Shown here one piece after another: positions 4,839-36,211 of a stretch of DNA of 64,000 nucleotides. Source of the DNA: a virus (taxonomy: Duplodnaviria > Caudoviricetes); IMG/VR virus record IMGVR_UViG_3300042258_000341, positions 96,001 through 160,000 of that record, one strand, 5' to 3'. The notes beneath the pieces were generated by a model, which saw nothing but the letters and a program-made list of their open reading frames with translations, made no database searches and was not told where the DNA came from. Within the stretch, counting starts at the first letter, position 1; every line of letters begins with the position of its first letter. The position numbers were made by a program, and so were the translations under genes.

Positions 4839-5510
4839 TTAAATTAATTGTGCCCGGAGGATATTAAATAAATAATCTCTCCCGTTTAACTTGTAAGATT
4901 CGTTTATGTCTTTCCCTTGAAAGTTAAGGAACTTAAAGGTATTTGCAAATTCTGTATTCACCTTCGTTTCTTTTATTATATTCTTTACTGCAGTTTGCCC
5001 GGATTTATCGTTGTCGTAAGCAAAATAGATATTGTTCGAAATCGCCTTCAAGAAACAACAGAATTTAAAGGAATGCATTGCAGTTAACGGGGAAATTATC
5101 GGAAATCCCAAGGGTCTTAAGGTTTCAGCATCTATTACCCCTTCGGTTACGATCAAAGGCGTTTGCGGGTCTATCTCGGAAAGAGAGGTTGTGTAATACA
5201 AAAGTAAATCCACAGATTCTTCTTTGAATTTTCGATATCTTAATCGGGAAGATTCTGTTCCCAAGTAACGAGCATCGAACCCTATCAGTTTTGCCGGATC
5301 TTCTACATCGGTAATCGGGAAATACAAAGTATCTGTAAATAATCCCGGGGGCAGGAAAGCAGAAAGAGATATGAAGCTGTTTTTATCCCCCCCGGTAAAG
5401 ACAGGCGGGTATCGCATAGCTTCAGAATTAACCCCTCTTGTCAGGAGGTATTTTTTAGCATTTGCGATGTTTTCTTCGGTATAAATTATATTCGCAAGTT
5501 TCTGTATCAT
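4839..5510 (-). CDS. DNA primase catalytic (TOPRIM) subunit lacking a Zn-finger
   Basis: YLLTRGV, LYFPI, GFDAR, VTEGVIDA, YDNDKSG and KDINE DnaG motifs; no CHC2 domain. Confidence 0.85.
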   Translation of the reverse strand: MIQKLANIIYTEENIANAKKYLLTRGVNSEAMRYPPVFTGGDKNSFISLSAFLPPGLFTDTLYFPITDVEDPAKLIGFDARYLGTESSRLRYRKFKEESVDLLLYYTTSLSEIDPQTPLIVTEGVIDAETLRPLGFPIISPLTAMHSFKFCCFLKAISNNIYFAYDNDKSGQTAVKNIIKETKVNTEFANTFKFLNFQGKDINESYKLNGRDYLFNILRAQLI

Positions 5511-5520
5511 ATCTCTCTCA

Positions 5521-5550
5521 TATATACTCGAAAACAGGGTTATTTTTCAG
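5521..5550 (-). promoter_or_regulatory. class II promoter-like motif (CTGAAA-N18-TATATA)
   Basis: recurring motif, 10 nt upstream of the primase ATG. Confidence 0.5.
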
Positions 5551-6866
5551 ATATCTTTTGCAATCGAAAGAACAGTCGCTGTTTCGTAATTTTCTTCAGT
5601 GTCTTTTACAAGAACTGCTTTATCTTTCAAAAGCTGGAAAGTAACTGTTTCAGATTTAAAGAAATTAAGAGTTTTCAATAAATTCTCCAATCCAACATAA
5701 AATTCTCTTTCCTGTAAATCTTGTGCGCTTTGTCGAGAAATAGAAAGAACATCTCTTGATTTTTTCCCGGTGAAGTCTTGTATCGAAAGAATTAATTTTG
5801 CTTCCGGGTTTTTGTTGTAAAGCTTGAATTTTACAAGAATGTTCTTTGCTACAGCAACAACAGATAGTTTCTGCAAAGAGGAAACAAAGGCACTTCTCGG
5901 GAGATTTATTGTCTCATCTACAGATAAGGACAGTAATGTTTTAAGAGAAGGGAAAGAAACTTCGGTCTTTTCAAGACCAAGGAATAAGTTCTGATCCCGA
6001 ATAATAAAATAAGTATCTGTTTCGAAAAGTTTTGTTTTTGCAGGATCGAAAAAAGGAAGGACTTTCGAAAGCACAGACACCACTTCTTGTTTTAATTTCA
6101 AAGGCACATTCAACAGAGACGGGGATTTAAAATAACCTATTGCCGCAACACTCCCCCCTACAATTGCAGAATCCCGGCAATCGATAACCGAAAGAGATTC
6201 TTGACTTTCGTTCTTTTCGGAATACAAGGAGAGGTAATTGAGGGCTGTTTGCAATATCTCTACATTCAAATTACATTCCACCGGGAGGATATTTACAATA
6301 TTATTGTGATATTGTATAAAATCAGTAGCTTCCCTTACAGAAAGTTCAAGATGCGTTTCTCCGGAATCCATCTCAAGAAGAGCGTTCTCTGCATTGTATT
6401 TAAAAGAAAGCTCGTGATTCGGGAAAGAAGCTGTGATTTTTGCAAGAGTCGGGTAATCGAAAGCAAAAGAGATTTCAGGGTTCTTCCCGACAGAAGATAT
6501 TTTTGTAAGTGGGATAAAAACCTCTCCGAAAGAAAAATTATTAAATCCCGATATCTTAAGCTGTGTTTCGAAAATAACAATCTTTATCAAATTCGGATTT
6601 ATTTTACTGCCCGTATATGTGTGTTTCAAAACCCCACAAGCATATTTAAGAAATCTTGAATCCACAGAAAAAGAATACTCCCCAACTCCGGGGGCATCTC
6701 CTTCTTTGTGGAAACGATCAAAAAGAGAAGTATCTTCGGATTTGTAATACACCTCTTTTAACTCCCGGATAACTTCTTTTGGGGAAGCATCTGCGTCTAT
6801 TACAATAGAACTGTCTGCTGAAGGTTTTACCATATTTCCTATTTTGCTGCTTAAAGTTTCTGTCAT
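5547..6866 (-). CDS. DNA polymerase sliding clamp (beta-subunit-like)
   Basis: three repeated alpha/beta domains with clamp-like patterns (LKISGFN, FDYPTLAKI, PRSAFVSSLQKLSVV, NLLKTLNFF); replication context. Confidence 0.6.
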   Translation of the reverse strand: MTETLSSKIGNMVKPSADSSIVIDADASPKEVIRELKEVYYKSEDTSLFDRFHKEGDAPGVGEYSFSVDSRFLKYACGVLKHTYTGSKINPNLIKIVIFETQLKISGFNNFSFGEVFIPLTKISSVGKNPEISFAFDYPTLAKITASFPNHELSFKYNAENALLEMDSGETHLELSVREATDFIQYHNNIVNILPVECNLNVEILQTALNYLSLYSEKNESQESLSVIDCRDSAIVGGSVAAIGYFKSPSLLNVPLKLKQEVVSVLSKVLPFFDPAKTKLFETDTYFIIRDQNLFLGLEKTEVSFPSLKTLLSLSVDETINLPRSAFVSSLQKLSVVAVAKNILVKFKLYNKNPEAKLILSIQDFTGKKSRDVLSISRQSAQDLQEREFYVGLENLLKTLNFFKSETVTFQLLKDKAVLVKDTEENYETATVLSIAKDI

Positions 6867-6869
6867 GAT

Positions 6870-7241
6870 TTATTGTCCCGCCTGTTCCATAGCTTCTTTT
6901 AAAACTTGAAGTTGATCTGTAAGCTGTGTTTCAAGTTCTTCTTTTTTTATTTCCAGCTCCGAAACATCTTTTATCCCGTATTTTTCAAGAATTTCTTTTG
7001 TCTGTTTGTCGATTTCTTTTTCTTTTTCTTCCAGTTGAGCCTCAAGAGCGATTACAGAAACGGAAAGAGTTTCTTTTTCTTTTGCTATTTTAGACAAAAG
7101 GTTTGTTAATTGTTCCGGGGTGAGTTTCTTTACATCCACATCCAGAACTTCTTTGTATTTACTTAATTCGGATTGCAGGGCAGATTTTATTTCTTTCGGG
7201 AGAGCATCGATAATTTCAGCAAGAGTTTTTGTTTCGGACAT
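6870..7241 (-). CDS. coiled-coil hypothetical protein
   Basis: heptad-rich E/K/L sequence. Confidence 0.65.
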   Translation of the reverse strand: MSETKTLAEIIDALPKEIKSALQSELSKYKEVLDVDVKKLTPEQLTNLLSKIAKEKETLSVSVIALEAQLEEKEKEIDKQTKEILEKYGIKDVSELEIKKEELETQLTDQLQVLKEAMEQAGQ

Positions 7242-7266
7242 ATTTATATTGTCAACCTTTCTTTTC

Positions 7267-8445: not shown

Positions 8446-8480
8446 GTAAAAAATTTCCTTTTGTTTTATTTTCTGTTATG

Positions 8481-8509
8481 AATATACCGCAATCTTAAAT
8501 TAATTACAG
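8481..8509 (-). promoter_or_regulatory. class II promoter-like motif (CTGTAA-N17-TATATT)
   Basis: recurring motif in an intergenic gap. Confidence 0.6.
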
Positions 8510-8515
8510 AAAAAA

Positions 8516-9583
8516 TCATTTATTCAAATATTCCGTAACAATATCGAAAACTTCTTTTTGTAAGTTTAATTTCTGCAAATAAGCCATAGGATTTTCGGTA
8601 AAGAAAACATCATCTTTCGAGGATATTTGTTGTCGTAAGCCTTGTATGAATTGTTGAATTTCTTTGGATTTTTCAAGTTGAGTTTGTAACGAATCCAGTT
8701 GAAAGATATCCAATCCATTTTTAATTCCCGGGATTGGTTTGTAATACATATTCAAAGCCAGTCCATCGGGAGTGTCTTCTATTTCGGTTACAGAATAGGC
8801 GGGGATATGTTGTTTTTCAAGAACTTCTGTTTGGTTGAAATAGTCTTTTATGACCCTTCCTATACTCCACGGCTTAGATATGGTTACATTTCTTACAGGG
8901 TCTTGCCACGGGGCAAAAGAAGCATGAATATGCCCCATAAAAAGGAAAGAGTTCTTCGGGAACATTTCGGAAAGTTCCTGATAAGAAAAAGATTCCCAAA
9001 GCGTAACCTGTAATTTATTCGGAGTTGCATCTACATGGATCATAAACCCGTAAAGGATTCTTCCACATTCTTTTAATTCCGGCTCTAATTTCTGTAAATA
9101 ATTTGCAACAACGTCTTTGAAGTTGGACATAGGGATATAAGGGATTCCAACCAAAACAAAAGTGTCGAAATTATTTCCGGAAAGAGGTATTTTTGCGTAT
9201 TGAAAAGAAATATCAACTATTATGTTAGGTAATAGTCCGGTAAGAGAAGTGTAAGGGCTGTCCTTGATGTTTGCAATTGCAGATTTCGGAAGATCGTGGT
9301 TGCCCGGAATTGAATAAAACTGCGGGAAATCTTTTAACAGTTCCCGGTAATGATTTAAATCTTTCGGGGAATAGGCAGATTGATTCTTAAGATGGAATAA
9401 ATCCCCGGTGAAAAGAATTAAATCGGGATTTTCTTCTTTCAAAGCTTCCCTTAAAGAACTCAGCTCTTGTGCAACATCGGCATGATACATTTCAGTCCGG
9501 GATTGTGGAATGTGCCCTAAAGGGGATAAATGTATATCCGAGAAATGGCAAATTTTCATTTCTTTTCCGCTTTCTTTGCACAC
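8516..9583 (-). CDS. Mre11/SbcD-like metallophosphoesterase nuclease
   Basis: SDIH, GDLFH, GNHD and GHIH motifs; adjacent to SbcC-like ATPase; probable start at MKICHFSD. Confidence 0.88.
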   Translation of the reverse strand: MCKESGKEMKICHFSDIHLSPLGHIPQSRTEMYHADVAQELSSLREALKEENPDLILFTGDLFHLKNQSAYSPKDLNHYRELLKDFPQFYSIPGNHDLPKSAIANIKDSPYTSLTGLLPNIIVDISFQYAKIPLSGNNFDTFVLVGIPYIPMSNFKDVVANYLQKLEPELKECGRILYGFMIHVDATPNKLQVTLWESFSYQELSEMFPKNSFLFMGHIHASFAPWQDPVRNVTISKPWSIGRVIKDYFNQTEVLEKQHIPAYSVTEIEDTPDGLALNMYYKPIPGIKNGLDIFQLDSLQTQLEKSKEIQQFIQGLRQQISSKDDVFFTENPMAYLQKLNLQKEVFDIVTEYLNK

Positions 9584-9705
9584 TCTTTACACCCTATTAA
9601 ATGACTTACCGGAACATCAACATGCTTATTCGGGATTAAATGTTTTTCTTCGTGTTCCGGGATGTATCTTTGACAAAACATGCATTTAGTTTCTTTTTCC
9701 ATACT

Positions 9706-11013
9706 TTATTTCTCCTTACAAATTTCTTGTTCGCAAACAGGGCAGACCCCTAAAGATGTGAAAATAGCTGGTTTTAAAGAAGACAGTCCTTCCACTTTAT
9801 TTTTACAATCGGAAGTCTTTTTCGACAATTCGACAACTTCATCTTGTAACTTCGGGAGGATTAAAACATCCTTCTTGCACCCGACAACAGTCTCCACAAT
9901 ACGGTGTAGTTCTGTAAAATAAACATTAAGACTCTTTTTCAAAGATAACAAATCTGAATTGTTTTTATGTTTCTGCAGCACCTGACTATGTTGTCGAATA
10001 TCTTTTACAGAAACCAGATTGTTTAGTATCTGTTCTACCGACTGTAAAATAATTCTTTTGGGGACAAGATAGTTGTTCCCGGAAAGAACTTCTTCTTTTT
10101 TATTCTGGAGGTTAGATAGTTCTTTCTGAGCTACGGAAAGAGCATAAACCTTTTCTTGTAAAGAGAATAAAAGGTCTCGGATATGATTTTGAGCTTTTAC
10201 CTTTATTTTTTCTTTTTCGATAAGGTCTTTTTTTAATTCCAGCCCCTGTAATCGAGCTATATCTACACCCACATCAAGAATGTCTGTTTGCAGTTTTTCC
10301 GTGTCTTTAATTGCTACAGAAAGAATATCTATTTTAAGATTTAAATCTTTAACTTTATCTTCGAGCGTAGTTGCTTCTAAGTAATCGCTTTTCAACTCTT
10401 CTTCCTGATTACTCACAGCTTTAGATATTCGGATATCATCTGTTTTCATTTCCCGTAAAGCTTTTTCGAAACGAGAGATATCAAAAACTTTGTTGATAAA
10501 TGAAGTTATTTCCGTATCTGTGGAAGTGATCAGAAATAAAGGGTCTAATTGGGACTGAAAATTAAGATTAAAAACATCATCTCTTTCTGTAATTACCGGA
10601 GATAAGTTTAAATCTTCAAATTTTTCAGGGACATTTTTACCCACTTTCGGATATTTTACGGTATCCCCGGAAAAAGAAATTAAAGTGTACTCGTTTGCTG
10701 GTTTTTTTACCGAAATTTCAGCTATATCCATGTCCGGAAGAACTGTGTTCAAATACCCGGTTCTTTCAGGGATAGAAAAAGTAACTTCTGTTTCTTTTTC
10801 ATCCAGCGTAGTAAATCCTGCGTTCCACTCATTCAAAAGAACTGTCCGTAAGGAACGCAGGATTGCTGATTTTCCACGATTACTTTTACCTACAAGAGCG
10901 GTAAACCCTTTTATCGGAAGAGTAAGGTTTTTTATACTTTGAAAATTCTTAACTTTCAGTTCGTAACTCATTGTTCTTGCTTTCTTATTGATTGTCAAAA
11001 GGACTGTTGCCAT
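9706..11013 (-). CDS. Rad50/SbcC-like ATPase, N-terminal half only
   Basis: VKNFQS, GKSNRGKS Walker A, Q-loop (FQSQ), coiled coil, ends at a CPVC zinc hook; no signature motif or Walker B. Confidence 0.82.
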   Translation of the reverse strand: MATVLLTINKKARTMSYELKVKNFQSIKNLTLPIKGFTALVGKSNRGKSAILRSLRTVLLNEWNAGFTTLDEKETEVTFSIPERTGYLNTVLPDMDIAEISVKKPANEYTLISFSGDTVKYPKVGKNVPEKFEDLNLSPVITERDDVFNLNFQSQLDPLFLITSTDTEITSFINKVFDISRFEKALREMKTDDIRISKAVSNQEEELKSDYLEATTLEDKVKDLNLKIDILSVAIKDTEKLQTDILDVGVDIARLQGLELKKDLIEKEKIKVKAQNHIRDLLFSLQEKVYALSVAQKELSNLQNKKEEVLSGNNYLVPKRIILQSVEQILNNLVSVKDIRQHSQVLQKHKNNSDLLSLKKSLNVYFTELHRIVETVVGCKKDVLILPKLQDEVVELSKKTSDCKNKVEGLSSLKPAIFTSLGVCPVCEQEICKEK

Positions 11014-11275: not shown

Positions 11276-11493
11276 AAATATTTCCTTTCTTTACACAATA
11301 ACCGCAAAGACAAGCAACCATGTAGGAACTGTCTGCCCGGAAAGGAAAAGAAGCCCGATTACCGACCACAAGGCAATGTTCATGCCTATAGAAATTTGAA
11401 CCGATTTGTTTTTGAAGTAAATTTGTGTAAGCATTTTTTAATATCCTTTCTTTATGTATATACTAGGTTGCCGGAAAAATTACCGAAAATTAT

Positions 11494-11703: not shown

Positions 11704-11708
11704 ACAAT

Positions 11709-11897: not shown

Positions 11898-11910
11898 ACG
11901 GAGCCTTTCT

Positions 11911-17655: not shown

Positions 17656-17684
17656 GATATACTGCAGAAATAAAATTATTACAG
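17656..17684 (-). promoter_or_regulatory. class II promoter-like motif (CTGTAA-N17-TATATC)
   Basis: recurring motif. Confidence 0.6.
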
Positions 17685-20347: not shown

Positions 20348-20655
20348 TCTTTCTCTATTTCTTTTATAAATTGTTCCATATCTTCTATATCTTTTTCGGA
20401 ATAATACTTAGGTTCCCGCCATTCCCCTATTTGTCGGGGATCAACTTCTTCAACTTTTCGCACAGGTCTTATATGTGCAATAAGAATAGGATTTCCGAAT
20501 TTTCTCCAAATCGGAATAATATTCTTTGCTTCCCGTAAAGTAATAGATTCCCCGGAATAACTTTGTATGCAATCTGAAAAAGCTCCAACTCGAATGAATT
20601 TTCTTCCGGTTGTTGCTGAAGTATATATTTTTATTGTATTTCTTTTTTCAACCAT
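20344..20655 (-). CDS. hypothetical protein
   Basis: 103-aa collinear ORF. Confidence 0.55.
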   Translation of the reverse strand: MVEKRNTIKIYTSATTGRKFIRVGAFSDCIQSYSGESITLREAKNIIPIWRKFGNPILIAHIRPVRKVEEVDPRQIGEWREPKYYSEKDIEDMEQFIKEIEKD

Positions 20656-22416: not shown

Positions 22417-22530
22417 CGATTCATTTCTCTTAATAAATGTTACCATTCACTAAGTAAAGTTCACAACAGAAAATACGTCTGTTATGGAAGAATCTTTCGA
22501 CGCAAGAGAAAAATTCTTTAAGAATACATT
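22396..22530 (-). ncRNA. putative TnpB omega-RNA (scaffold ~22416-22530, guide ~22396-22415)
   Basis: overlaps the tnpB 3' end; stems TTTCTCTT/AAGAGAAA, CATAACAGA/TCTGTTGTG, TTAGTGAATG-GTAA-CATTTATTAA; GATTC/GAATC pseudoknot pairing just before the terminal GG. Confidence 0.65.
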
Positions 22531-23760
22531 TCTTGCTCCGTTTAAATCCCTGTCTATTTCTAATCCACAAGAACATTTCAAAGTTTTCTTAGAACCAATA
22601 TTCTGAACTTTCCCGCATTTACCACATGTTTTGCTGGTGTAAGCTTCGTTTACCTCAATAATTTCACAAGAATACTCTTGTGCCTTGAATTTCAGAAATT
22701 GCTTGAACCTGTAATGTGACCATCCAAGCATTGCTCTGGCGACTTTTGAATGAAGTTTTGTTACCATATTTGATGTTTCAAACGATGGTATTAAAATACA
22801 ATCAAAATTTTTTACCAATAACAACGCTAATTTATGGTGTATTTCTGAAATCAAGTCTTTAATCTTCCAGCGAATTCGTTTCAATTTAAGATTATATCTG
22901 TTTGTTGCTTCTTTTTTACGCCTAGAATAAAGCTTATCTAAAATATAACATAAGCGATAAATTCGAGAAAAATCCGCATTACCAACTTTGGCAGCAAAAG
23001 AATCAGAATACAAGGTTTGAAATGTTCTCACACCGGGGTCAAGAGCTACGACAGGGAGCCTTTGGTTATCAGGTCTTTTGACAGCTTTATCTTCCGGTTT
23101 AATTACAAAATAACGACCATTTTCTAAAATTACACGACAATCATATTTAACTTCTCCAATCTTTTCTCTAAGATTAATAATTCCTGTGAGGGTGTGATAA
23201 AAACCAGCTTCTTTAAGTGCAGACTTAGGAATAAACAGATTAAAGTCCGCATTTTTACGAGAACGAAATTTTACTTTTTGAATTTTTCCAGTTTGCTTAA
23301 ATTTGCGCTTTGCATTTTTGGTTGCATCACAGGCATCTTTAATCGCAATGGATTTTATCTGATATGGCACTTCTTTCGCCCAGACTGGCAAACCATGAAT
23401 TAAATCTGTTTTTATGGCTTTCCAGTCTGCCTTCGTATTAGGTTGTCTAAGATACTCAACCGTTTTATTGAAAGAATATCTAGCTACGCCAAACCATTTA
23501 AACAGAATTGTTTTCTGTTGTTTCGTTGGATAAAATCTTATCTTTCTTGAGCGTTTCAGTGTATTTTCTGAGTCCGTGAATTCTACACGAGAAAACCGTG
23601 ATGATTGATAGCAAGTCTGTGACGAGTTCTTGTTGTGGGGAACTTTTACTGTCATCGAGAACCACGAGTTTAACATTGTGTTTAGTGAAGAACCACTCAA
23701 TGAGTTCAAATCCAAATCTACATAATCTGTCTCGATGGGCAACCACAACTTCTTTGACAT
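22450..23760 (-). CDS. tnpB: TnpB RNA-guided endonuclease, Fanzor-type RuvC
   Basis: KIRFYPT, ALDPGVRTF (RuvC-I), ILIPSFE (shifted RuvC-II Glu), EAYTSKTCGKC..CSC zinc finger, DRDLNGARN (RuvC-III); start uncertain, frame open to 24126. Confidence 0.9.
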   Translation of the reverse strand: MSKKLWLPIETDYVDLDLNSLSGSSLNTMLNSWFSMTVKVPHNKNSSQTCYQSSRFSRVEFTDSENTLKRSRKIRFYPTKQQKTILFKWFGVARYSFNKTVEYLRQPNTKADWKAIKTDLIHGLPVWAKEVPYQIKSIAIKDACDATKNAKRKFKQTGKIQKVKFRSRKNADFNLFIPKSALKEAGFYHTLTGIINLREKIGEVKYDCRVILENGRYFVIKPEDKAVKRPDNQRLPVVALDPGVRTFQTLYSDSFAAKVGNADFSRIYRLCYILDKLYSRRKKEATNRYNLKLKRIRWKIKDLISEIHHKLALLLVKNFDCILIPSFETSNMVTKLHSKVARAMLGWSHYRFKQFLKFKAQEYSCEIIEVNEAYTSKTCGKCGKVQNIGSKKTLKCSCGLEIDRDLNGARNVFLKNFSLASKDSSITDVFSVVNFT

Positions 23761-24091
23761 TTCCAAGACTTGTTTGTTCCAAAAGCCACAGGAACTGTTT
23801 TCTTTTGAAGTTGATTCCACTTCCGACATCAAAGATAATTTCGTGTTCTGGGTAATGCTTTCGCATAAATTCTTTTTGGCGTTCAAGGTCATCTTTTTGT
23901 TTGTGTGATGAGACTCGGCAATAGCAGAAAGCCTTGCAGGTAGAACTTGATTGTTCGATGCTTGAGACATCATACAATCTTTGTCCTGCGGGATTTCTGA
24001 TATACTTAATTTTCCCATCATCAGCCCACTTTCGTAGAGTGTTAGCACAAACTCCAAGATGCTTAACCGCTTTTCTTGACGGTATAAACAT
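23498..24091 (-). CDS. tnpA: IS607 serine recombinase TnpA
   Basis: HTH LGVCANTLRKW, YCRVSS, DVGSG, HRDRLCRFG, ELVTDLLSIITVFSCRIHGLR. Confidence 0.95.
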   Translation of the reverse strand: MFIPSRKAVKHLGVCANTLRKWADDGKIKYIRNPAGQRLYDVSSIEQSSSTCKAFCYCRVSSHKQKDDLERQKEFMRKHYPEHEIIFDVGSGINFKRKQFLWLLEQTSLGNVKEVVVAHRDRLCRFGFELIEWFFTKHNVKLVVLDDSKSSPQQELVTDLLSIITVFSCRIHGLRKYTETLKKDKILSNETTENNSV

Positions 24092-24111
24092 TTGTTAACC
24101 CCCTGTAATGA

Positions 24112-24140
24112 ATGGTAGCATATCAATCACTTGTTGTCAA
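24112..24140 (-). promoter_or_regulatory. sigma70-type promoter of the IS607 element
   Basis: TTGACA-N17-TACCAT with extended TG, then AGGGGG RBS before the tnpA ATG. Confidence 0.75.
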
Positions 24141-25498: not shown

Positions 25499-25577
25499 TT
25501 TGTATTTTTTATACACATAAAGGGTATTTTTTATCCCGCTTTTTGTATTTTTTATCGGCATAAAGGGGATTTTTTAT
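25499..25577. repeat. two 36-bp direct repeats containing four ATTTTTTAT boxes
   Basis: boxes at 25504, 25526, 25547 and 25569 (spacing 22/21/22). Confidence 0.75.
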
Positions 25578-26869
25578 ACACATTCTTCTGTAAAATCTAT
25601 TTCCGAAATTAAACTCTTCAGGTCTTCTACAAAAGGATTCTCGTAAGACCCTTTGTAGGTATTGTCAAAACCTTTTACCATTTCACTCCCGGAGATAGTT
25701 AATTTTCTTTTCGACCGGGTAATTGCTACATAAAAAACACATCTACTTTCGAAATCGTAATAATCAAGTTGCCACAATCCCCGGGTTTTTGCGTAATAAA
25801 TGTAATTGTTTTCTTTTCCCTTGTAAGAATGAATTGTGTAAAAGCCTAAAGCGTCTCTATCCGCTTTTGCAACTTTCTTTTCTTTCATTTCTATATGGAC
25901 ATCCTGAGAGAGCTGTAGATTTTCGTAAATTTGTACAAATTGCTCCCAGTTCGATAATTTTTTAAATTCAGCATCTTCGCAAGAAACTTCGTAAAGAGTC
26001 GAAAGAGTATTAAAAACTTCGATCAACTGTTTTCTTTTCAAGAAAACTCCCACCCCTCCGAGAGTTGGAACATCTTCTTCGAAATAATAAAAATTATTCA
26101 AAAGCCGTAAAATAAGTCTATTTATCGAAGGGTAGTTAAGCTTTGTTTCTCTTTCTGCAAGAAGAGGTTTCAACACCCTTTCGATAAAAGAAAAAATACT
26201 GTCCCATTGCTTATAATTGCTGTTCGGGAGATTGCTTTTGTTTTTTACAGAAAAGAATTCCAACAGTGGGGTATTTTTATTTGTATAGGCTTTTTTTATC
26301 TTTTCGATAAATTTAACTCCTACGCCTTTTATCGGCTGGATTAATTCCCAGAAATTTAAAACATTTTCAGGATCAAGCATCATGGAATACAAAGAATACA
26401 GGTATTTAAACCCGGATTGAGCCATAATGGATTGATTGTCGAATTTAAAGTAATACGGGATGCCGAGAGAAACTACCCCGGATTCGAAACTCGATATCTC
26501 GTTGTTTGTTCGACAGAGGATGGAAAATTCCGAATACGGGATTCCTTCCACATCATGTTTGTACTTTATTTCCCTTAAAATATGCGTAATTTCTTCTTCC
26601 GGGGTTTCGAAATCCAGAATCGAAAGAGTTTCCGGCATATTTTTAAGATGTGGAACTGCCGGAGTGTAATCTATACCGTTTTCTTCAAATATCTTCCGAA
26701 ATGCATTTGCGATCAGAACCAACTGCCTCGGAGTTCGGTAGTTTTTAAGAATTGTGTGTTCTTTTACCCTTTCCGGAAAAAGATTCTTGAAGTTGGCAAA
26801 TAGAAAGGGTTTGCTTGCCCTCCACCCGTAGATACTTTGAGCAAGATCTCCAACCATTGTTACAGACAT
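25574..26869 (-). CDS. UvrD/PcrA helicase, C-terminal part (motifs III-VI)
   Basis: begins VGDLAQSIYGWR; NYRT, ILCRTN, TIHSYKGKE, FYVAITRSK. Confidence 0.9.
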   Translation of the reverse strand: MSVTMVGDLAQSIYGWRASKPFLFANFKNLFPERVKEHTILKNYRTPRQLVLIANAFRKIFEENGIDYTPAVPHLKNMPETLSILDFETPEEEITHILREIKYKHDVEGIPYSEFSILCRTNNEISSFESGVVSLGIPYYFKFDNQSIMAQSGFKYLYSLYSMMLDPENVLNFWELIQPIKGVGVKFIEKIKKAYTNKNTPLLEFFSVKNKSNLPNSNYKQWDSIFSFIERVLKPLLAERETKLNYPSINRLILRLLNNFYYFEEDVPTLGGVGVFLKRKQLIEVFNTLSTLYEVSCEDAEFKKLSNWEQFVQIYENLQLSQDVHIEMKEKKVAKADRDALGFYTIHSYKGKENNYIYYAKTRGLWQLDYYDFESRCVFYVAITRSKRKLTISGSEMVKGFDNTYKGSYENPFVEDLKSLISEIDFTEECV

Positions 26870-26872: not shown

Positions 26873-27853
26873 TTATTCTTCCTTTTCACATTTTTTTTCT
26901 TTTAATTGAGATTCCGAAGCTCCACAAATCCTACATCCGGAAAGAGCCACATTTCCGTTTCGATCTTGAATTGCTGAAGGAATTCCTTTATCCCCGTCAA
27001 CAAACAAAACATGCCCGTTAACTTTTACCGGATTGTCTTGATAGCAAGACATCGGCTCTGCGTTTTCAAAAAACACTTTTACTCGATTTTCAACTTTATT
27101 CAACGGAGGTAGAGTTACTTTTTGGATTTCATTTCGAGTAAAAACAAAATCCGGGAATTGACGAGCATTGTGCTTTTCAGGGAGGGTTTTCAATTCATCT
27201 TCCGTTAATTTCTTGGAAACTGTCCTTCTCAAGAAGTAAGAACCTCTTTTGAAATCCGCCGGGTAATCATTCCAGTTTATATGTCTTTCTTGCCAAAGCA
27301 ATTCCTGCATTTCAGCTCCGGTTAGTTTATGCAATCTTTTGTGGGAAAAATAAACTCTTGCTGCAGAGGAAATGCTATTCTTTGTAGCATCCAGTTCTCT
27401 CCAGAGAATTGTATTTACCGCTTCTTCTTTTGTTGGAACATTCCATACCCGGCAATCAAAGAAACAGGTTTTATTTGCATAAAAAGGATAGAATTTTCTT
27501 AAGCCTTCCTGAAAGTAAAAAGTACACATAGAAGCTAAAACGGATGTTATTTTTTGAAGTTTCCCGTCGAAAAAGACCTGACTTGTTCGGTTGTCCGAAT
27601 ACAGGATCAAAGATATTTCATCTGATTGCGTATAGCCTACAAGAGCATTTGTTTCTTCAACCAGCTTCTTTGTCGTGTACTGCATAGTTTCCATAAGCCG
27701 AAGATCAAAAGGCTTTTCCATTTTCCGTGTGAATTTAGAAAAGTTCTTTCCATCCAGACGAATACAGATAGGGAGTAAAGGAAGAAGACGTTCTCCCGCC
27801 CATCTCTGTTCGTAATCTTTCATTCTATCTCCGAAACCGTCTTTACTTGTCAT
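26873..27853 (-). CDS. tRNA(His) guanylyltransferase Thg1-like protein
   Basis: RMKDYE, RLDGKNFSKFT, YTQSDEISL, FDGKLQKITS, FDCR, WRELDATKNS, KRG. Confidence 0.92.
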   Translation of the reverse strand: MTSKDGFGDRMKDYEQRWAGERLLPLLPICIRLDGKNFSKFTRKMEKPFDLRLMETMQYTTKKLVEETNALVGYTQSDEISLILYSDNRTSQVFFDGKLQKITSVLASMCTFYFQEGLRKFYPFYANKTCFFDCRVWNVPTKEEAVNTILWRELDATKNSISSAARVYFSHKRLHKLTGAEMQELLWQERHINWNDYPADFKRGSYFLRRTVSKKLTEDELKTLPEKHNARQFPDFVFTRNEIQKVTLPPLNKVENRVKVFFENAEPMSCYQDNPVKVNGHVLFVDGDKGIPSAIQDRNGNVALSGCRICGASESQLKEKKCEKEE

Positions 27854-27858
27854 TTATT

Positions 27859-29685
27859 TTATTTCCTTTCGAAGTCTTCGTAACTTTCCTTGTCGGAAAG
27901 AATACAAGTTAAAAATTGATTGCAAGAAGCGTCCTGACATTCATCTTGAATTATATGTTCTATCCGGGAATGTAGCTTATCTCTTAACTTCTTATGCTGT
28001 GTGATCAACATTAAGAATTGAAAATCCATATCACCGAAGTCCAGAACATTGTTGGAATATTTTTCGGTAAGGTATTTATTGACCGCTTCTTGCCATGTTT
28101 CAGGGTCGAGACCTGTAGTAAATAAATACTTGTCCAAAACTTCAAAGATATTCAATCTTAAATCTTTTTGCCCGGTAATTATTTTCATCAGCTTTGTGTG
28201 TGGCATTTTCCTTATAAAAGGATATGCCGGGTGAGTTTCTTTAAACTCTTTCCAAGAAACGACTTTTTCGAATTTCCCGGTTTCTGTAAATAAAGGAACC
28301 CCGGAATACAATATTTCCATGTTACTTTGCATGTTTTGAAAGACTTTGTATGTCTTCCCGGCAACTTCTTTCGTAAGTGGAATACCGACTCTTTTCATAT
28401 ACGGCTCGGTAAGACACTCTTTCCAGAGCTTATAAGATTGATATTCGGTAAGAATTGTTCTCGGGAACCCGAAACTTCTTCTTATTTGTGAAAGGCAGAA
28501 AGAGTGAATAGTTGAAATATGTGGGGTTGGAAAAGAAGTTCCTTCCGGGTATTGATCTTGAAAAAAAGAAATATATCTTTCTTTCATTTCATTTGCAGCT
28601 TTATTTGTAAAGGTAATCAATACAATTTTTTCAGGATCAATTTTGTCTTCGTAAACAAGTTTTATTGCCCGAGCGATGATGGTTTTTGTTTTTCCTGAAT
28701 TATGGACAATGATATTGTTTGCTGCAAAATTGTGGTGTGTCTCGCATTCAATATCATAAGTCTCTTCTTCCCCAAGATATTGTATTGATTTAAAGTTTGA
28801 ATATTCTGGCAAACCGTGTTTAAACCCTGCGTATCCTGAAGCATGGAGTTGATTGTGTTCGAGATAGGGCATAATCTGTAAATTTTCTAAAATGTTATTT
28901 AAGGGGTTTCCGTCAATATGGTGAACACAATATCTCTTATCCAGTACTTTTAATTTATTAGGTGAAAAAGTTCTCCTTATAAATTCATCTACAGAAATCC
29001 CGTTCATGTCAGCTTCAACTACTAAACGATGTTCCGGGGAACGATAGGTTAATTTACCTCTTTTTAAATTTCGGACTTTATTTGGATAATAAAACCCCAC
29101 AGGAGTATATTTGTAATATTTTTTAATAGGGGGTTGCCCCGAAGATGTTTTTTTATGCTTCGATAATGTGTCTATCATAACCTCATCAGATTTCTTTAAA
29201 AAACCCGCAGCAACCCATCCCCGTTTTGTTAAAAATTTATGATCTGCAGTGGCTTTTATTTCAAACCCATTTTGTAAAGTTACCCGGAAAACTTTTTTCA
29301 CCCCACTTTTGAAGACCGCTACAATTTTTTCCAACCGAATGACATCCCCACAAAAAGAACGAATTTTTGTAGGAATATTTAAATCCCATGATTGATCTCT
29401 GTAACTGCGTAGTCGGTTGAATTTTCGATATAGTTTTTCCAAAGATATCTTTTGACTTTTCCCTGCACGATTTATTCTTATTTCTGTGTCCCCCGTTAAA
29501 CAACCCGCACCTGCAGTACAAGATAAACTATCTGTTGGAGCAGCACCCACGACTTTTCTCTGATATTCATCTAATTCTGAAATCATTTTATTGTATTTTT
29601 CAGAAATATCGGGTTTAACGAATTTTTCATCTCGGGTAAGAACCATATCCCCGTTTGGTTGTGTTGAAAACAAAGATAACTGCAT
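27859..29685 (-). CDS. UvrD/PcrA helicase, N-terminal part (motifs I-II), with intein
   Basis: AGAG[intein]SGKT, ITFTNKAANEM, STIHSFC, LDFGD, QDECQD, then a stop. Confidence 0.9.
   Translation of the reverse strand: MQLSLFSTQPNGDMVLTRDEKFVKPDISEKYNKMISELDEYQRKVVGAAPTDSLSCTAGAGCLTGDTEIRINRAGKSQKISLEKLYRKFNRLRSYRDQSWDLNIPTKIRSFCGDVIRLEKIVAVFKSGVKKVFRVTLQNGFEIKATADHKFLTKRGWVAAGFLKKSDEVMIDTLSKHKKTSSGQPPIKKYYKYTPVGFYYPNKVRNLKRGKLTYRSPEHRLVVEADMNGISVDEFIRRTFSPNKLKVLDKRYCVHHIDGNPLNNILENLQIMPYLEHNQLHASGYAGFKHGLPEYSNFKSIQYLGEEETYDIECETHHNFAANNIIVHNSGKTKTIIARAIKLVYEDKIDPEKIVLITFTNKAANEMKERYISFFQDQYPEGTSFPTPHISTIHSFCLSQIRRSFGFPRTILTEYQSYKLWKECLTEPYMKRVGIPLTKEVAGKTYKVFQNMQSNMEILYSGVPLFTETGKFEKVVSWKEFKETHPAYPFIRKMPHTKLMKIITGQKDLRLNIFEVLDKYLFTTGLDPETWQEAVNKYLTEKYSNNVLDFGDMDFQFLMLITQHKKLRDKLHSRIEHIIQDECQDASCNQFLTCILSDKESYEDFERK
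28699..29502 (-). mobile_element. intein (268 aa) with HNH homing endonuclease, inserted in Walker A
   Basis: starts CLTGDT, block B ATADHKF, ends YDIE..NFAANNIIVHN/S; internal EHRLV..VHHIDGNPLNN..ENL..EH..H. Confidence 0.93.
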
Positions 29686-29914: not shown

Positions 29915-29930
29915 TTGAAATTATTTTAAT

Positions 29931-29962
29931 AAAAAAAACCGGAATTTAATAAAAATTCCGGT
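29931..29962 (-). terminator. intrinsic terminator after sigma-like gene
   Basis: AACCGGAATTT/AAATTCCGGTT stem plus T-tract. Confidence 0.7.
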
Positions 29963-30011
29963 TAGGGAGAAAAATGAAAGTCCTACTGAACTTTACATCG
30001 AAACACCAAAA

Positions 30012-31385: not shown

Positions 31386-31436
31386 GTTTTAAATTTCCTT
31401 CGATATACGTTTTCTTTTGTAAAAACTATATCGAAA

Positions 31437-32150: not shown

Positions 32151-32177
32151 TTGTTCAACCTCCTCTATGTTTTTTAT

Positions 32178-33968
32178 TTATGCGGAAAGAATCACCGCAA
32201 TTTTTTTCTCACCTTTTATATTCTTTATTGTAACATCAGAAATCTTTTTTGGGAAGAGGTATATTTCATCTTTTTCTTGAAAAGCCACTCGCCACCTCCC
32301 AGAACCATCGTCAGCACTGAGTTTTTGTAGTATATCTTCGGTCACATCTTCTGCTTTGAAAATAACGGTATTTGCTTGCGAAAGGTAATGTTGTTTCGGT
32401 AATATTGTGTTTAAAAGGTATATCTTAGCTGCGGGGTATTGTGTTGTTGACGTAAAAGAACGGGTGAGGTCATATTCTACATCCATCTCCAACAAAAAAT
32501 CAACCCCTAAAGATTTTATTATGTCTTTTATTTGTAGAACCTCATAAACAGAAGGGATGATTGAGTCAAAAAGTTTTTCTTGGATTAAGAAATCTATTTC
32601 ATCATGGATTGAAAGTAATTGAGCGCATCTCATATCTCGATATGAGATATTTGTTAAATTCCCCGAAGGCAGATATCCTGCAAGAGGGTTTAATTTTTGC
32701 TCAACAATGTAATCCTCAATTCGGATCATAGACATTTTAAGAGCTTCCGCCATACTTGACTGTATAGGGTGGTTATACCCGACACGAACAGCGTAACTTA
32801 CGTCTTGTCTTCGTTTCTTCTCCGTCTCCGCTTTGGAATTAACAAAACGAGAAAGATCCCAAATTCTTCCGAAGAAATTACGAGAAATTCCGGTATTTAA
32901 AATGTTTTGCTCTGTAAGGAGCATATGTCTTCGAGCTTTTGTGAGCAAGGCAAAAAAGTTATTTAATCTTTTTTGCGCTTCTACTTCATTGCACTTCATA
33001 TTTTTCATTAAAGTCCTCGCAGACGCTCCGTAGACTGCAGCAAGCCCACATATTTTGCTACAATTTCGGTATTCTTTAAGAATCTCGGATTGTGTTGAAT
33101 TGGGTAGTTCTCCGGGGGCTAATTTAGGGTATTCAGGATCATTAGAAAAGAAAGCTTTTGCATTAAGAGAGTGAAAGTCTCCCGGGACATTTTTTGTAAA
33201 TTCTTTTGCCACCCGGCAAGGAATCTTACAGTTTTCGCATTGTTTCGGAAAAGTAGCTTTATCCAATTCTCCTTGTAAGAAACAATAAATATGATCGTCT
33301 TGCAGATACAGGCAAGAAACATCTTGTTTATCGATGGGGGCGGTTAATTCTATTTCCCGGACAATTACTTTAGGGGTTCCTTCGTAAATCTTCAACCACT
33401 CAGGTTCTTGTGTAGCAATAGCACTCCCTCTTGGTTCGATTGCCGAAAAGTCGAAAGCCACCAACATATTTTCAGGGACATATTCTTCGTAAATGCTGAA
33501 ATATTTACAATATTCACTGTTCTCGAATTCAGATTTTGTTCCGTAAAAACGAAATTGCCCTTTCATTACTCGAAACGGTTTGTCCATATCCGATAAAATA
33601 AAATGTAAATTTCTTTCATCCTGAGAGAAATGATCGTAAGGAGTATTCCAAAGGCGCATAGGAACAATGTTTTCGTTTTCTTCTTCCGAGGGTTTAAATT
33701 CTATCCCCGGCAACAATTGTAAAACAAGGAAAGACTTTTCTTCGAACCCAATTGCTCTTCGTGCAGGGGGAATAACCGCCGTTGAAATAGTTTCTTCTTG
33801 AAATTCACAGCCGTTATTAACATACGGGCAACCCTCGCACCCATCTCGAACACAATAATGATTTCCCGAATACACAAGAAATTGTTGTGGGTTGCCTACA
33901 AGAAAATTCTTCAAGCCTTCGAATTTTGTTTTTATTTTTATTTCCGACATATTTTTATACCGCCGCAA
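32178..33968 (-). CDS. family A DNA polymerase, C-terminal (palm/fingers) subunit
   Basis: motif A FDFSAIEPR, DFH, motif B RNCSKICGLAAVYG, NHPIQS, motif C IHDEI; probable start at 33950. Confidence 0.9.
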   Translation of the reverse strand: MRRYKNMSEIKIKTKFEGLKNFLVGNPQQFLVYSGNHYCVRDGCEGCPYVNNGCEFQEETISTAVIPPARRAIGFEEKSFLVLQLLPGIEFKPSEEENENIVPMRLWNTPYDHFSQDERNLHFILSDMDKPFRVMKGQFRFYGTKSEFENSEYCKYFSIYEEYVPENMLVAFDFSAIEPRGSAIATQEPEWLKIYEGTPKVIVREIELTAPIDKQDVSCLYLQDDHIYCFLQGELDKATFPKQCENCKIPCRVAKEFTKNVPGDFHSLNAKAFFSNDPEYPKLAPGELPNSTQSEILKEYRNCSKICGLAAVYGASARTLMKNMKCNEVEAQKRLNNFFALLTKARRHMLLTEQNILNTGISRNFFGRIWDLSRFVNSKAETEKKRRQDVSYAVRVGYNHPIQSSMAEALKMSMIRIEDYIVEQKLNPLAGYLPSGNLTNISYRDMRCAQLLSIHDEIDFLIQEKLFDSIIPSVYEVLQIKDIIKSLGVDFLLEMDVEYDLTRSFTSTTQYPAAKIYLLNTILPKQHYLSQANTVIFKAEDVTEDILQKLSADDGSGRWRVAFQEKDEIYLFPKKISDVTIKNIKGEKKIAVILSA

Positions 33969-35625
33969 GTAGTTTTACAAATTCTTTTTCGATCTCTTCG
34001 GAATATGTTTGTTTAAGATTCAACCCCGCTTCTTCGGGTAGAGAAATTATCTTATTTGCTTTCGCCTGTTTCTTGTCGGGCTTACTTATCCCTTGCGTAT
34101 TTATTCCCGAACCCCAATCTCCCTTTTCGTATTTGTAAGAAAGGTTTCCTTTTGCAGTGAGACTTGCTCTTATCCCTTCTCTTCCGGAACTACTCGCAGA
34201 AGAAAGTCTTCCTGTAGGGATTACTGTGGTTGAATAGCTTGCTCGACAACGGGTATACGGCAAAAAACCGTCTACGTAAGAATTTGCAATTAATTTACTC
34301 AATACATTGTTTATCGCAAGAGCCAATTGCCGATAAGTGACAATATATTCGAGAATAGGTATCTCCGGGTATTTTTGGAATAAATCTTCAAGAACATCCG
34401 CAGCAGTTGAATACAGCCCTTCCGGATTACTTTTTGTGGGCTTACCTTTCACCATCCCTTTCATCGGAGGGATTTTAAGTTCTTCGAAAAGAATCTTGGA
34501 TATTTGTTGCGGAGACTGTATGTCGAACTCCCTTCCGAGAAATTCGTACGCTTTTTTCTGCAGCATCTTCAACCGATAAACAATATCTTTGCAAGATTTA
34601 ATTGCAAAATCAATGTTTATCGGAAATCCCGGGCGATATAAACTTCTTAAAACATCAACAAGTTTATGATCAATCATTATCGGAATAGGCTGTTGAATAA
34701 AAACATTTTTTTCTTTCGGCATTTGTGCAAATTGTAAAAATAAACCCATTGTGTTGATAGCGTCTGAACAGCCATATACAACGGCATTTTGACAAGCCAA
34801 ACGGTCGAAATTAATATGCCCTTTTACCTTCTCCCCGGTTTCGGAAAATAATTGGCTAATTTCTATCATCTTTCGACCTAACATTTGCTCACTTACCGCT
34901 TTTAATCCGTGTCTTTTTTCATTCACATCAGAAATAAAATGTAAAATCATTGTATCGAAATATTGCGGAAAAGGTTTGGGATTAACTCCGGATAAAGCTA
35001 ATATCTCTTTGTCGTATTGCGCATTGTGATAAATAAGCAAAAAGAAATCTGCAATTTTCTGTAAGAAATTACAGATCGTTTTGTAATCCCAATTAAGAAC
35101 CCCATCTTCTTCTGTATGCATCACAGGGAGATAATACCCTACCGTATCCGAAGATGCTAAACACACCCCCACTATTTTTGTTTTCGGATTTAATTTCTTT
35201 TCGTAATCGTAAAGAGTTCGAGTATCCAATCCGGTTGTTTCCAAGTCAAGAGCGAGTAAGTTAGCCCCTTTAAACCCTTCTATCTGTAATGCTGTTGAAA
35301 AATCAGCAGGAAGAAACATTGTTTCTTTTTTCAATTGCTCGAAAAAGATGTTTAATTCTTCTTCTTGTACAGAAATATCTTTTGCAGAAGGGGCTATTAA
35401 ATTACAGGAAACATCTTGTAACCATTCCATTCCCGGTCTTTGCGAAAGAGCTTCTTGCGAGAAAATAAGTGGATTCGGAGGGAATTTGGGCATCGGATTG
35501 CTTTCGAGATACGCTGCACAGTCCGGAAGAAAAGACATAATATCTTGCTCAGGCTTAATACTCGGTTCTTCAAGCCCTAAGTCTAAAACATCTTGTAATG
35601 TGGGTTGTTCTGTCATTTTTGCCAC
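33955..35625 (-). CDS. family A DNA polymerase, N-terminal (3'-5' exonuclease + thumb) subunit
   Basis: DLETTGL, HNAQYD, DTMI, YGCSD (Exo I-III); SPQQISKILF, YSTAADVL, TGRLSS, NTQGI. Confidence 0.9.
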   Translation of the reverse strand: MAKMTEQPTLQDVLDLGLEEPSIKPEQDIMSFLPDCAAYLESNPMPKFPPNPLIFSQEALSQRPGMEWLQDVSCNLIAPSAKDISVQEEELNIFFEQLKKETMFLPADFSTALQIEGFKGANLLALDLETTGLDTRTLYDYEKKLNPKTKIVGVCLASSDTVGYYLPVMHTEEDGVLNWDYKTICNFLQKIADFFLLIYHNAQYDKEILALSGVNPKPFPQYFDTMILHFISDVNEKRHGLKAVSEQMLGRKMIEISQLFSETGEKVKGHINFDRLACQNAVVYGCSDAINTMGLFLQFAQMPKEKNVFIQQPIPIMIDHKLVDVLRSLYRPGFPINIDFAIKSCKDIVYRLKMLQKKAYEFLGREFDIQSPQQISKILFEELKIPPMKGMVKGKPTKSNPEGLYSTAADVLEDLFQKYPEIPILEYIVTYRQLALAINNVLSKLIANSYVDGFLPYTRCRASYSTTVIPTGRLSSASSSGREGIRASLTAKGNLSYKYEKGDWGSGINTQGISKPDKKQAKANKIISLPEEAGLNLKQTYSEEIEKEFVKLLAAV

Positions 35626-35626
35626 C

Positions 35627-36211
35627 TTAAATTTCTTGCCAGAATCTTTTTAATTCCGATAAATACAAAGGGTCTTTAACTTCTTTTAATTGCAACAAAG
35701 TTTCGGCATATCGGATTTTTTGTAATTTCCCGGATAATTCAGAAGCTTCGAAAACATAATATTCCATCGGGTCAAATTCAAGAAACAAATGCCTCGGGAA
35801 AGGAATGTTGAATCTTTTCTTGAGAAGAACAAAGAATTCCCGTAAATGAATTCCTGAATAAAAAGATTCTCTATTATACATAAGCCAAAAAGGAGTTCTG
35901 GATTTCTGGCATTTATGACAATATACATGGGGCTTACTCGCTCCTGTGTTCCTGTCTTCAGGATAATATTTTGCAGAAGGGTGTCTATCTTGAGAACCGT
36001 GGGAAGGCAATAAACATTGCACCTGTTGTTGAGTATCATCCGACCCCAGTTCGTATCCGTAATTTGTAAATACTTGTGACATCAGCAATTTACTATCGTA
36101 ATATGCTGAAATGCTTTCTGTTAAAGGCACAATTGTATTACTGGGGATTTGCTTAATCAATTCCTCATCGGAAAGATTAATGTATTCAGGATGTAAATCT
36201 ATTGTTCTCAT
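35627..36211 (-). CDS. stand-alone primase CHC2-type zinc-binding domain protein
   Basis: CLLPSHG..DRHPS...YCHKC; lies between DnaB and PolA. Confidence 0.7.
   Translation of the reverse strand: MRTIDLHPEYINLSDEELIKQIPSNTIVPLTESISAYYDSKLLMSQVFTNYGYELGSDDTQQQVQCLLPSHGSQDRHPSAKYYPEDRNTGASKPHVYCHKCQKSRTPFWLMYNRESFYSGIHLREFFVLLKKRFNIPFPRHLFLEFDPMEYYVFEASELSGKLQKIRYAETLLQLKEVKDPLYLSELKRFWQEI

Follow-up and report, generated by a model that had tools for sequence, protein, structure and literature searches.

Four replication and recombination enzymes of an uncultured phage of ∼200 kb are each encoded in pieces, and these pieces are inherited in related phages. The DNA analyzed comprises bases 96001–160000 of the 196,978-bp IMG/VR virus record IMGVR_UViG_3300042258_000341; this whole stretch of 64,000 nt is referred to as the window. 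It is the module that serves replication and recombination in the phage. A family A DNA polymerase (PolA), a UvrD-like helicase, a DnaG-type primase, and an SbcC/Rad50-like ATPase are divided over two genes apiece. Judging from sequence, we consider it likely that the four enzymes are built from separately translated polypeptides, which would assemble noncovalently, and that the splits are of different ages. A preliminary description of the window had already proposed the four splits, and this was borne out: open frames, all of the minus strand, are present at every set of coordinates given, and the halves match complementary parts of the respective profiles.

33955–35625, minus strand: N subunit of PolA (PolA-N), 556 residues, with 3′-5′ exonuclease, thumb, and TGRLSS motif; Pfam DNA_pol_A_exo1 and DNA_pol_A positions 11–124
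32178–33950, minus strand: C subunit of PolA (PolA-C), 590 residues, with Cys4 module and motifs A, B, and C; DNA_pol_A positions 197–361
27859–29685, minus strand: N half of the UvrD-like helicase (UvrD-N), 608 residues (340 when spliced), with motifs I and II; Pfam UvrD-helicase positions 24–229
25574–26869, minus strand: C half of the UvrD-like helicase (UvrD-C), 431 residues, with motifs III–VI; UvrD_C and PF00580 positions 242–270 (its last 30)
35627–36211, minus strand: primase zinc-binding subunit, 194 residues, DnaG-type CHC2 zinc ribbon and C-terminal helical hairpin
4839–5510, minus strand: primase catalytic subunit, 223 residues, DnaG-type RNA polymerase domain (RPD) with TOPRIM; Pfam Toprim_2, 2.8e-7
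9706–11013, minus strand: N half of the SbcC/Rad50-like protein (SbcC-N), 435 residues, with Walker A lobe, long coiled coil, and CPVC hook
genome positions 81530–82162, minus strand, outside the window and 24 kb downstream of the N half: C lobe of the SbcC/Rad50-like protein (SbcC-C), with SFGGG, LLVFDE, and VTHQ

That the pieces bear no sign of decay, as had also been stated, was evident from their motifs: Exo I–III, TGR, and motifs A–C of PolA, motifs I–VI of UvrD, Walker A, SFGGG, Walker B, and the H-loop of SbcC, and the TOPRIM glutamate and DxD of the primase are all intact.

For comparison, a 224-kb relative (IMGVR_UViG_3300029288_000067 from JGI, here G001; loci L010–L021; identities 41–54%), the contigs L022–L025, two ENA contigs, and the more distant huge phages G002–G006 (110–376 kb; two of them complete) were used. 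The same breakpoints were found in G001 and in contigs of at least four other samples. The suggestion of a lineage-wide subunit architecture, for which conservation of the breakpoints in related phages had been named as the check, is therefore upheld: the architecture is heritable, and G001 and L025 share the breakpoints, the halves being at other positions in G001. The PolA region has no close deposited relative (megablast against phages gave zero matches), and the best tblastn identities of PolA-N were 25–30%, to T5-like and other phages. In NCBI, the G001 proteins carry the label of a “Candidatus Pacearchaeota archaeon” metagenome-assembled genome, which is probably a binning error because the contig resembles that of a phage and is included in IMG/VR.

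Breaks in the polymerase and the helicase

The PolA break falls between the TGRLSS motif and motif A, inside the polymerase domain. PolA-N contains Exo I (DLETTG), Exo II (NAQYD), and Exo III (YGCSD) and aligns to residues 39–349 of the Klenow fragment chain, the last matched residues being TGRLSS; PolA-C contains the Cys4 module, then motif A (DFSAIEPR) and, beyond another Cys cluster, motif B and motif C (HDE). Together, the halves tile phrog_17 end to end (positions 661–979 and 1035–1236). The hallmarks of a family A polymerase are complete (Exo I–III and TGR on the first gene, motifs A–C on the second) except for a single-chain polymerase domain, and the split is kept in relatives. Because TGR and thumb reside on the N chain and motifs A, B, and C on the C chain, the active site would be composite. 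We infer a two-subunit polymerase to which one chain would contribute exonuclease, thumb, and TGR and the other motifs A, B, and C, the two genes being adjacent and probably translationally coupled.

In the window, the junction reads TAA-N5-ATG, with the C gene in the +1 frame relative to the N gene; the open frame of PolA-C spans 32178–33968, and the ATG at 33950 is its likelier start. In four relatives, the tails of PolA-N and the heads of PolA-C can be aligned residue for residue. The two genes overlap as ATGA in G001 and L025, and in L024, an AAA ATPase gene and a gene for a 71-residue protein lie between them. None of the 13 relatives of PolA-C (385–699 residues, 43–62% identity) is fused to an N part; a fused PolA was also sought among longer proteins and not found, which is weak evidence, and a scan of viral contigs with PolA-C as single-protein query returned nothing.

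Some relatives are cut further. In L022 and L023, PolA-C is broken again between motifs A and B, around a 437-residue open reading frame (ORF; the region of the extra break is at L022:1159–2472 and L022:240–1121/2462–3619). This ORF of L022 has no Pfam match and bears a nuclease-like motif (YRIDY...LEIDGSSH); the piece downstream of the extra break opens with a second copy of the Cys module. One of the ENA contigs has PolA in four pieces or more, and the pattern seen in some relatives is exonuclease, thumb, motif A piece, and motifs B–C piece.

The spacing between TGR and motif A is ∼252 residues in the present phage versus 58 in contiguous relatives, and ∼190 clade-specific residues flank the break. 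At the head of PolA-C (residues 39–56), a first Cys4 cluster reads YCVR-x2-C-x2-C-x6-C; a second, between motifs A and B (residues 223–245), reads C-x14-C-x2-C-x3-C and is nearly invariant in 13 relatives, and contiguous PolAs of huge phages have a CSEC at the corresponding position. The clusters may form a zinc or iron–sulfur site.

A family A polymerase in two adjacent genes, likewise arisen by gene fission and not by frameshifting, is known from S-SBP1-like T7-like cyanophages, where it was described as the first such case (Czernecki et al, 2023; PMC10201439). There, however, the break separates the exonuclease from the polymerase domain, whereas here it is internal to the latter. Among large phages, a replicative polymerase of two polypeptides is also known from PhiKZ, whose family B enzyme is a 1:1 complex of N and C chains (PMC13648687), and from Aeromonas phages 25 and 44RR, with their split family B polymerase gp43A/43B (PMC2988022). 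Those chains form a stable, active complex; they belong to another family and are broken at another site.

The UvrD break lies between motif II (DECQD) and motif III (GDxxQSIY). UvrD-N stops ∼20 residues past DECQD, and UvrD-C, whose N-terminus reads MSVTMVGDLAQSIY, is preceded by its own AGGAAG upstream of the ATG. On phrog_1967, the halves cover positions 177–385 and 393–693, end to end; an intein-less orthologue of UvrD-N aligns to PcrA residues 8–234 and UvrD-C to 246–629. The motifs of a UvrD/PcrA helicase of superfamily 1A are thus distributed as motifs I (split by an intein) and II in the N half and III–VI in the C half, and the contiguous 1A and 2A motor core is what is missing; the break, at the PcrA equivalent of 234/246, is kept in G001 and L025. 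All 15 relatives of UvrD-C (281–439 residues, 14 of them 419–439; 35–61% identity) are too short for a fused helicase, and full-length UvrD/PcrA proteins appear only at 21–31% identity to UvrD-C. The space between the halves varies: they are adjacent in L025, with a 10-nt overlap and AAGGAGG ahead of the second ATG, and 4.3 kb apart in G001, with an ATP-dependent DNA ligase and small genes between them. In the window, the gap is taken up by a Thg1-like gene, set off from the halves by 5 and 3 nt. Two elements of this locus are absent from the preliminary description.

28699–29502, minus strand: intein with HNH endonuclease, residues 62–329 (268) of UvrD-N, in the Walker A loop; Pfam Intein_splicing (8e-18) and HNH_3
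26873–27853, minus strand: Thg1-like tRNA-His guanylyltransferase gene; Pfam Thg1 (6.6e-32), phrog_4717 (1.4e-81)

The intein is of class 1 and contains a homing endonuclease; its borders read AGAG / CLTGDTEI...IIVHN / SGKT, with Cys1, the His-Asn pair, and Ser at +1, and joining of the exteins restores GSGKT. This Walker A sequence is uninterrupted in G001 and L025, and L022 has the same intein as the window. Because the cut lies inside the RecA-like domain 1A, the C half would have to add a strand to the sheet of the N half. In the proposed sequence of events, UvrD-N would first splice out the P-loop intein, and the C half would then complete domain 1A in trans.

The Thg1-like gene was considered as the cause of the UvrD break and rejected, given that the halves abut in L025 and that the orthologue in G001 (61813–62649) is away from the UvrD halves; because of the latter, the gene is cargo of the gap. 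A CCA-adding enzyme (PolyA_pol head and HD) is encoded at 20631–21998 of the window, and both it and Thg1 are kept in G001. The Thg1-like 3′-5′ nucleotidyltransferase and the CCA-adding enzyme look like a tRNA end-repair kit; ARAGORN detected zero tRNA genes over the window.

Separated domains of the primase and of SbcC

The two primase genes are 30 kb apart in the window and 113 kb apart in G001. For the zinc-ribbon protein itself, no direct match was obtained in Pfam, in PHROG, or among phages (tblastn included), and its family profile found nothing significant among PDB sequences. The family comprises 76 clusters, whose aligned near-full-length members are standalone proteins of ∼170–245 residues (shorter rows of the alignment may be fragments), with C66, H71, D75, S79, C98, and C101 invariant; PF01807 (Zn_ribbon_DnaG) is matched by 5 of 57 members, at best with 6.8e-14. 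The AlphaFold2 model of the protein has a predicted local distance difference test score (pLDDT) of 95.5. When it was compared with 48,161 chains by VIA-align, the top two folds were zinc-binding domains of DnaG: residues 1–97 of the Aquifex primase (2au3_A; Z 6.7, root-mean-square deviation [rmsd] 4.0, 97 residues aligned) and the primase of G. stearothermophilus (1d0q_B; Z 6.6, rmsd 3.8, 101 aligned). Primase rows in a Foldseek search against the PDB were weak (E 0.46), and matches in BFVD were standalone proteins named “Zinc finger, CHC2-type,” including gp229 of Bacillus phage G. On the basis of family transitivity and fold, the product of 35627–36211 is thus assigned as a CHC2 zinc ribbon. 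Its residues 147–194 form a helical hairpin; a C-terminal helicase-binding domain was not recognized in the primase subunits.

The TOPRIM protein matches primase PHROGs at positions 145–333 of 947 and belongs to a family of standalone proteins of 223–226 residues in huge phages, with E123 and D166-x-D168 invariant. In the PDB, the family profile found only primases (2au3_A residues 124–344 at 2.9e-16, the RPD of Escherichia coli DnaG at 6e-16), the DnaG RPD structures being matched at 3e-16 to 8e-16. Since the zinc ribbon covers residues 1–97 of 2au3 and the RPD with TOPRIM residues 124–344, the primase is broken in the linker. A DnaG-type zinc ribbon and an RPD with the TOPRIM glutamate and DxD are accordingly both present, on two polypeptides instead of one. 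The zinc-binding domain of T7 primase can act in trans, and the phage primase would work in the same manner, as a zinc-ribbon subunit and a catalytic RPD/TOPRIM subunit. A standalone primase-type zinc ribbon beside DnaG-Toprim was described for jumbo phages (Iyer et al, 2021; PMC7824862). In these and in Bacillus phage G (gp229), as here, a separate CHC2 protein of ∼170–210 residues accompanies a TOPRIM primase lacking the zinc-binding domain. Nothing essential differs between the jumbo phages and the present case, in which the zinc ribbon has the helical hairpin and adjoins PolA-N; its gene is directly upstream of PolA-N throughout the clade.

The gene next to that for the TOPRIM protein, an adjacency kept in G001, has no Pfam or PHROG match, and its product is probably a beta sliding clamp.

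5547–6866, minus strand: probable beta sliding clamp, 439 residues; nearest ESM Atlas clusters DNA_pol3_beta, score 0.95

The statement of the preliminary description that SbcC stops at its zinc hook, made without coordinates for the gene, was accurate: CPVC occupies residues 424–427 of 435 in SbcC-N, and the gene (9706–11013) ends eight residues later, the C-terminus being CPVCEQEICKEK. Matches of SbcC-N to Pfam AAA_29/AAA_23 are weak and below cut-off; it matches phrog_16465 (3e-6) and is homologous to gp8 of phage 0305phi8-36 (4.7e-11), and its Walker A ends in GKS. The C lobe was not found by a regular-expression search for the canonical LSGG signature, and PF13558, like PF01807, returned nothing on the phage's own genome because the homologues are too divergent. 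It was located by phmmer with the “ATPase” gp5 of 0305phi8-36 as query (1.3e-12) and matches phrog_15167 (3.4e-20) and positions 741–934 of the SbcC family phrog_77 (6.6e-4). Both lobes of an SbcC/Rad50 ATPase are thus encoded: the N half brings Walker A, the coiled coil, and the CxxC hook, and a separate ORF the C lobe with the signature motif, Walker B, and H-loop; the intramolecular antiparallel coiled coil that links the lobes is absent. SbcC-N ends at the hook in G001, L025, G002–G004, 0305phi8-36, and Tunturi_5, and a separate C lobe was found in G001 and G002–G004. Two neighboring genes are relevant here.

8516–9583, minus strand: SbcD/Mre11-like nuclease; Pfam Metallophos (2e-12), N-terminal part of 0305phi8-36 gp8 matched by phmmer
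6870–7241, minus strand: coiled-coil protein of 123 residues; no family match, conserved in G001

The order SbcC-N, SbcD, PD-(D/E)XK nuclease is kept in G001 and L025. For Rad50, it is common practice to rebuild the catalytic domains from an N and a C fragment. The two SbcC lobes, encoded 24 kb apart, would re-form the ATPase head with SbcD. In 0305phi8-36 (gp8, a fusion of SbcD and SbcC-N), Tunturi_5 (gp181), and PHROGs 16465 and 15167, as here, SbcC-N stops a few residues past CxxC, and a separate protein of ∼211–236 residues carries the signature-like GGG, Walker B, and H-loop. The difference is that SbcD is fused to SbcC-N in 0305phi8-36 and encoded by a gene of its own here, with the SbcC halves 24 kb apart. 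The Mre11-Rad50 fusion gp8 lacks one P-loop segment, and the respective lobe was not identified in the 2011 paper (PMC3175470); gp5, with its signature-like GGG, Walker B, and H-loop, is probably this missing segment. A search of the literature available to us for hook-split SbcC in phages retrieved no paper. In 0305phi8-36 (gp7) and Tunturi_5 (gp180), a coiled-coil protein of 92–97 residues is encoded right after the hook-terminated N half. As a hypothesis only, the 123-residue coiled-coil protein of the window may be a third piece of SbcC that supplies part of the descending helix.

Age and origin of the breaks

The splits are not equally distributed. The split primase is common to the distant huge phages G002–G006 (standalone zinc ribbon and TOPRIM protein in G002–G004 and G006), and split SbcC also occurs in G002–G004 and in the cultured phages 0305phi8-36 and Tunturi_5. 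The distant phages with the primase and SbcC splits measure 275–376 kb. Going by this distribution, these two splits are old and widespread among huge phages. In contrast, PolA (875–919 residues) and the UvrD-like protein are contiguous in the distant huge phages, and the PolA and UvrD breaks are for this reason clade-specific; they would have arisen in the ancestor of a narrower clade. That four splits together are striking, as had been remarked, was thus only partly sustained: all four are real, but two are old and shared with distant phages, so the cluster is an accumulation over time and not a single event. The primase split is already known, and the SbcC split is present, although poorly described, in known phages and PHROGs. 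What is new is the place of two breaks, in PolA inside the polymerase domain and in UvrD between motifs II and III; both are variants of the familiar kind of split phage enzyme.

As to the origin of the two younger breaks, they may be scars left by free-standing homing endonuclease genes or other selfish genes that inserted and have since been lost or replaced, a proposal that is compatible with noncovalent assembly of the pieces and to which we give somewhat less than an even chance. Both breaks adjoin strongly conserved catalytic motifs, where homing elements usually insert. The intein with HNH in UvrD-N, the nuclease-like 437-residue ORF in the extra PolA break of L022, an RRXRR/HNH gene that follows PolA-C on one ENA contig, and the ∼190 clade-specific residues around the PolA break point in the same direction, as do the published cases of mobE in nrdA and mobA in gene 39/60 (PMC2988022). 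In Aeh1 (nrdA/mobE) and T4 (39/mobA/60), as here, the gene of an essential enzyme is cut in a critical region and another gene lies in the gap, and the function of split NrdA, gp43A/B, and topoisomerase 39/60 is kept (PMC2988022). However, the gaps of Aeh1 and T4 hold an endonuclease, whereas those of the present phage hold the Thg1-like gene or nothing. Neither the PolA nor the UvrD break has an endonuclease in it, be it in the window, in G001, or in L025, the 437-residue ORF is without a Pfam match, and the cargo genes (Thg1, ligase, AAA ATPase) are not homing elements. The mobile-element scars of the preliminary description are backed by circumstantial evidence only (the intein, the varying cargo, and the ORF of L022). 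Once a gene has been split, the gap would accept other genes.

It is rather improbable that the fragmentation is adaptive, i.e., that it serves subunit exchange or, as the preliminary description had raised, regulated stoichiometry or escape from sensing by host defense. The splits do persist over deep divergence, and separated pieces have promoter-like motifs of their own (see below). Yet a neutral change would be expected to persist just as well, since reversal becomes difficult when neither half can be spared. In addition, PolA and UvrD are contiguous in the distant huge phages, and no link to defense or anti-defense was seen.

Even less likely is that the pieces are rejoined, by a group I intron, trans-splicing of a split intein, frameshifting, or bypass of the T4 gene 60 type. 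Phage polymerase genes often bear introns, UvrD already has one intein, and PolA-C follows 5 nt past the stop in the +1 frame. Against an intron in PolA, 5 nt leave no room for a ribozyme, and Rfam found none (at gathering score, across the window). Intein blocks are missing from the tails and heads, with no Cys1 following the N-extein and no HN-Cys/Ser where the C piece begins, and a degenerate split intein at the PolA break was rejected on this ground. The frame relation of the PolA genes varies among relatives, as the ATGA overlap shows, which rules out a conserved frameshift as well as an indel artefact, and two genes separate the halves in L024. The UvrD halves overlap by 10 nt in one relative and are 4.3 kb apart in another, and the primase and SbcC pieces are 24–150 kb apart. 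Reassignment of a stop codon as source of the breaks was likewise rejected, the halves being in different frames or far apart. Finally, the notion that the genes are truly contiguous and were broken by assembly or sequencing indels or by recent pseudogenization, which a single metagenome-derived record (82% complete) and PolA halves 5 nt apart in different frames, as one indel would give, might suggest, is refuted for practical purposes by the recurrence of the same breaks in independent assemblies (G001, L025, L024, L022/L023, and two ENA contigs; chance is not applicable for the same reason), by junctions that vary from TAA-N5-ATG and ATGA to whole genes in between, by catalytic motifs that are all intact at 41–60% identity, and by a 99% identical, 590-residue PolA-C on another contig.

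Separately translated polypeptides that would assemble noncovalently thus remain the best explanation, and several points weigh against it. UvrD is cut inside its RecA-fold core, and a search of the literature available to us for split UvrD found no published counterpart or precedent. The AlphaFold2 model of the TOPRIM subunit, built from seven sequences, is poor (pLDDT 57), and the coiled coil of SbcC-C measures ∼75 residues against ∼250 in SbcC-N. On the proposed origin, the lack of a homing endonuclease at the breaks has to be added. The record is, moreover, metagenome-derived and incomplete. The gene structures, their conservation, and the intact motifs are established, whereas the assembly and activity of every pair and the origin by insertion are inferred. 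The four-together pattern is best described as two old and widespread splits joined by two clade-specific ones.

The surrounding module and its meaning

All genes in the first 40 kb of the window are on the minus strand. In the upstream part, the order is SNF2 helicase, a 257-residue protein, DnaB-like helicase, zinc-ribbon protein, PolA-N, and PolA-C; in the middle, two conserved unknowns, UvrD-N with its intein, Thg1-like gene, UvrD-C, an IS607-type element, and CCA-adding enzyme; and in the downstream part, SbcC-N, SbcD, PD-(D/E)XK nuclease, 123-residue coiled-coil protein, probable sliding clamp, and TOPRIM protein.

36242–37702, minus strand: DnaB-like replicative helicase; Pfam DnaB_C (1.2e-14), phrog_19
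40222–40248, 38485–38510, 17657–17682, 11458–11483, 8482–8507, 1300–1325, and 33955–33978, minus strand: copies of a promoter-like motif

This motif, (TTT)GTAA-N12-18-RGTATAW, occurs nine times in the window (0.82 expected), with eight of the nine copies on the gene strand. Most are just upstream of start codons, many at a distance of only 3–20 nt. This proximity suggests that transcripts are leaderless or nearly so, or that the phage has a promoter class of its own. The stop of PolA-N is overlapped by one copy, which ends exactly there, and variants are found near 36224 and 5528; variants of the motif precede the genes for the zinc ribbon, the TOPRIM protein, and SbcC-C. Although unproven, co-expression of the scattered pieces would fit with this arrangement.

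Elsewhere in the window, RNase H (9.9e-42) and dUTPase domains are joined in a single ORF (1395–2435), a fusion amid the splits. A TnpB-like protein (Cas12f1-like TNB, OrfB_IS605) is encoded at 22450–24126, overlapping an upstream ORF, and 20 kb from it, at 2425–3348, a second serine recombinase of the IS607 TnpA type, headed by HTH_17/MerR. The 321-residue product of 13239–14204 matches the Mom family (PF25680, 4.8e-10) and may be a DNA-modification enzyme.

A more far-reaching picture is tentative and, taken as a whole, rather doubtful. A clade of ∼200–225-kb phages, at least one of them from an anaerobic digester, might run its replication with composite-active-site enzymes without described counterpart: a family A polymerase with TGR/thumb on one chain and the metal-binding motifs on another, in some members distributed over three to four chains, and a superfamily 1A helicase whose domain 1A is completed in trans. 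In this picture, the residues at the PolA break (the N tail and the Cys4 module) would form a metal-dependent docking clamp, and the small coiled-coil protein would be the third piece of SbcC.

The PolA and UvrD breaks are natural split points usable in protein engineering, and the split enzymes of this phage are test cases for partner finding. For annotation, the finding means that “truncated” SbcC, primase, PolA, and UvrD genes of huge phages are not to be called pseudogenes. It also reveals the extent to which enzymes essential for replication can be cut up and nonetheless be passed on over a long time.

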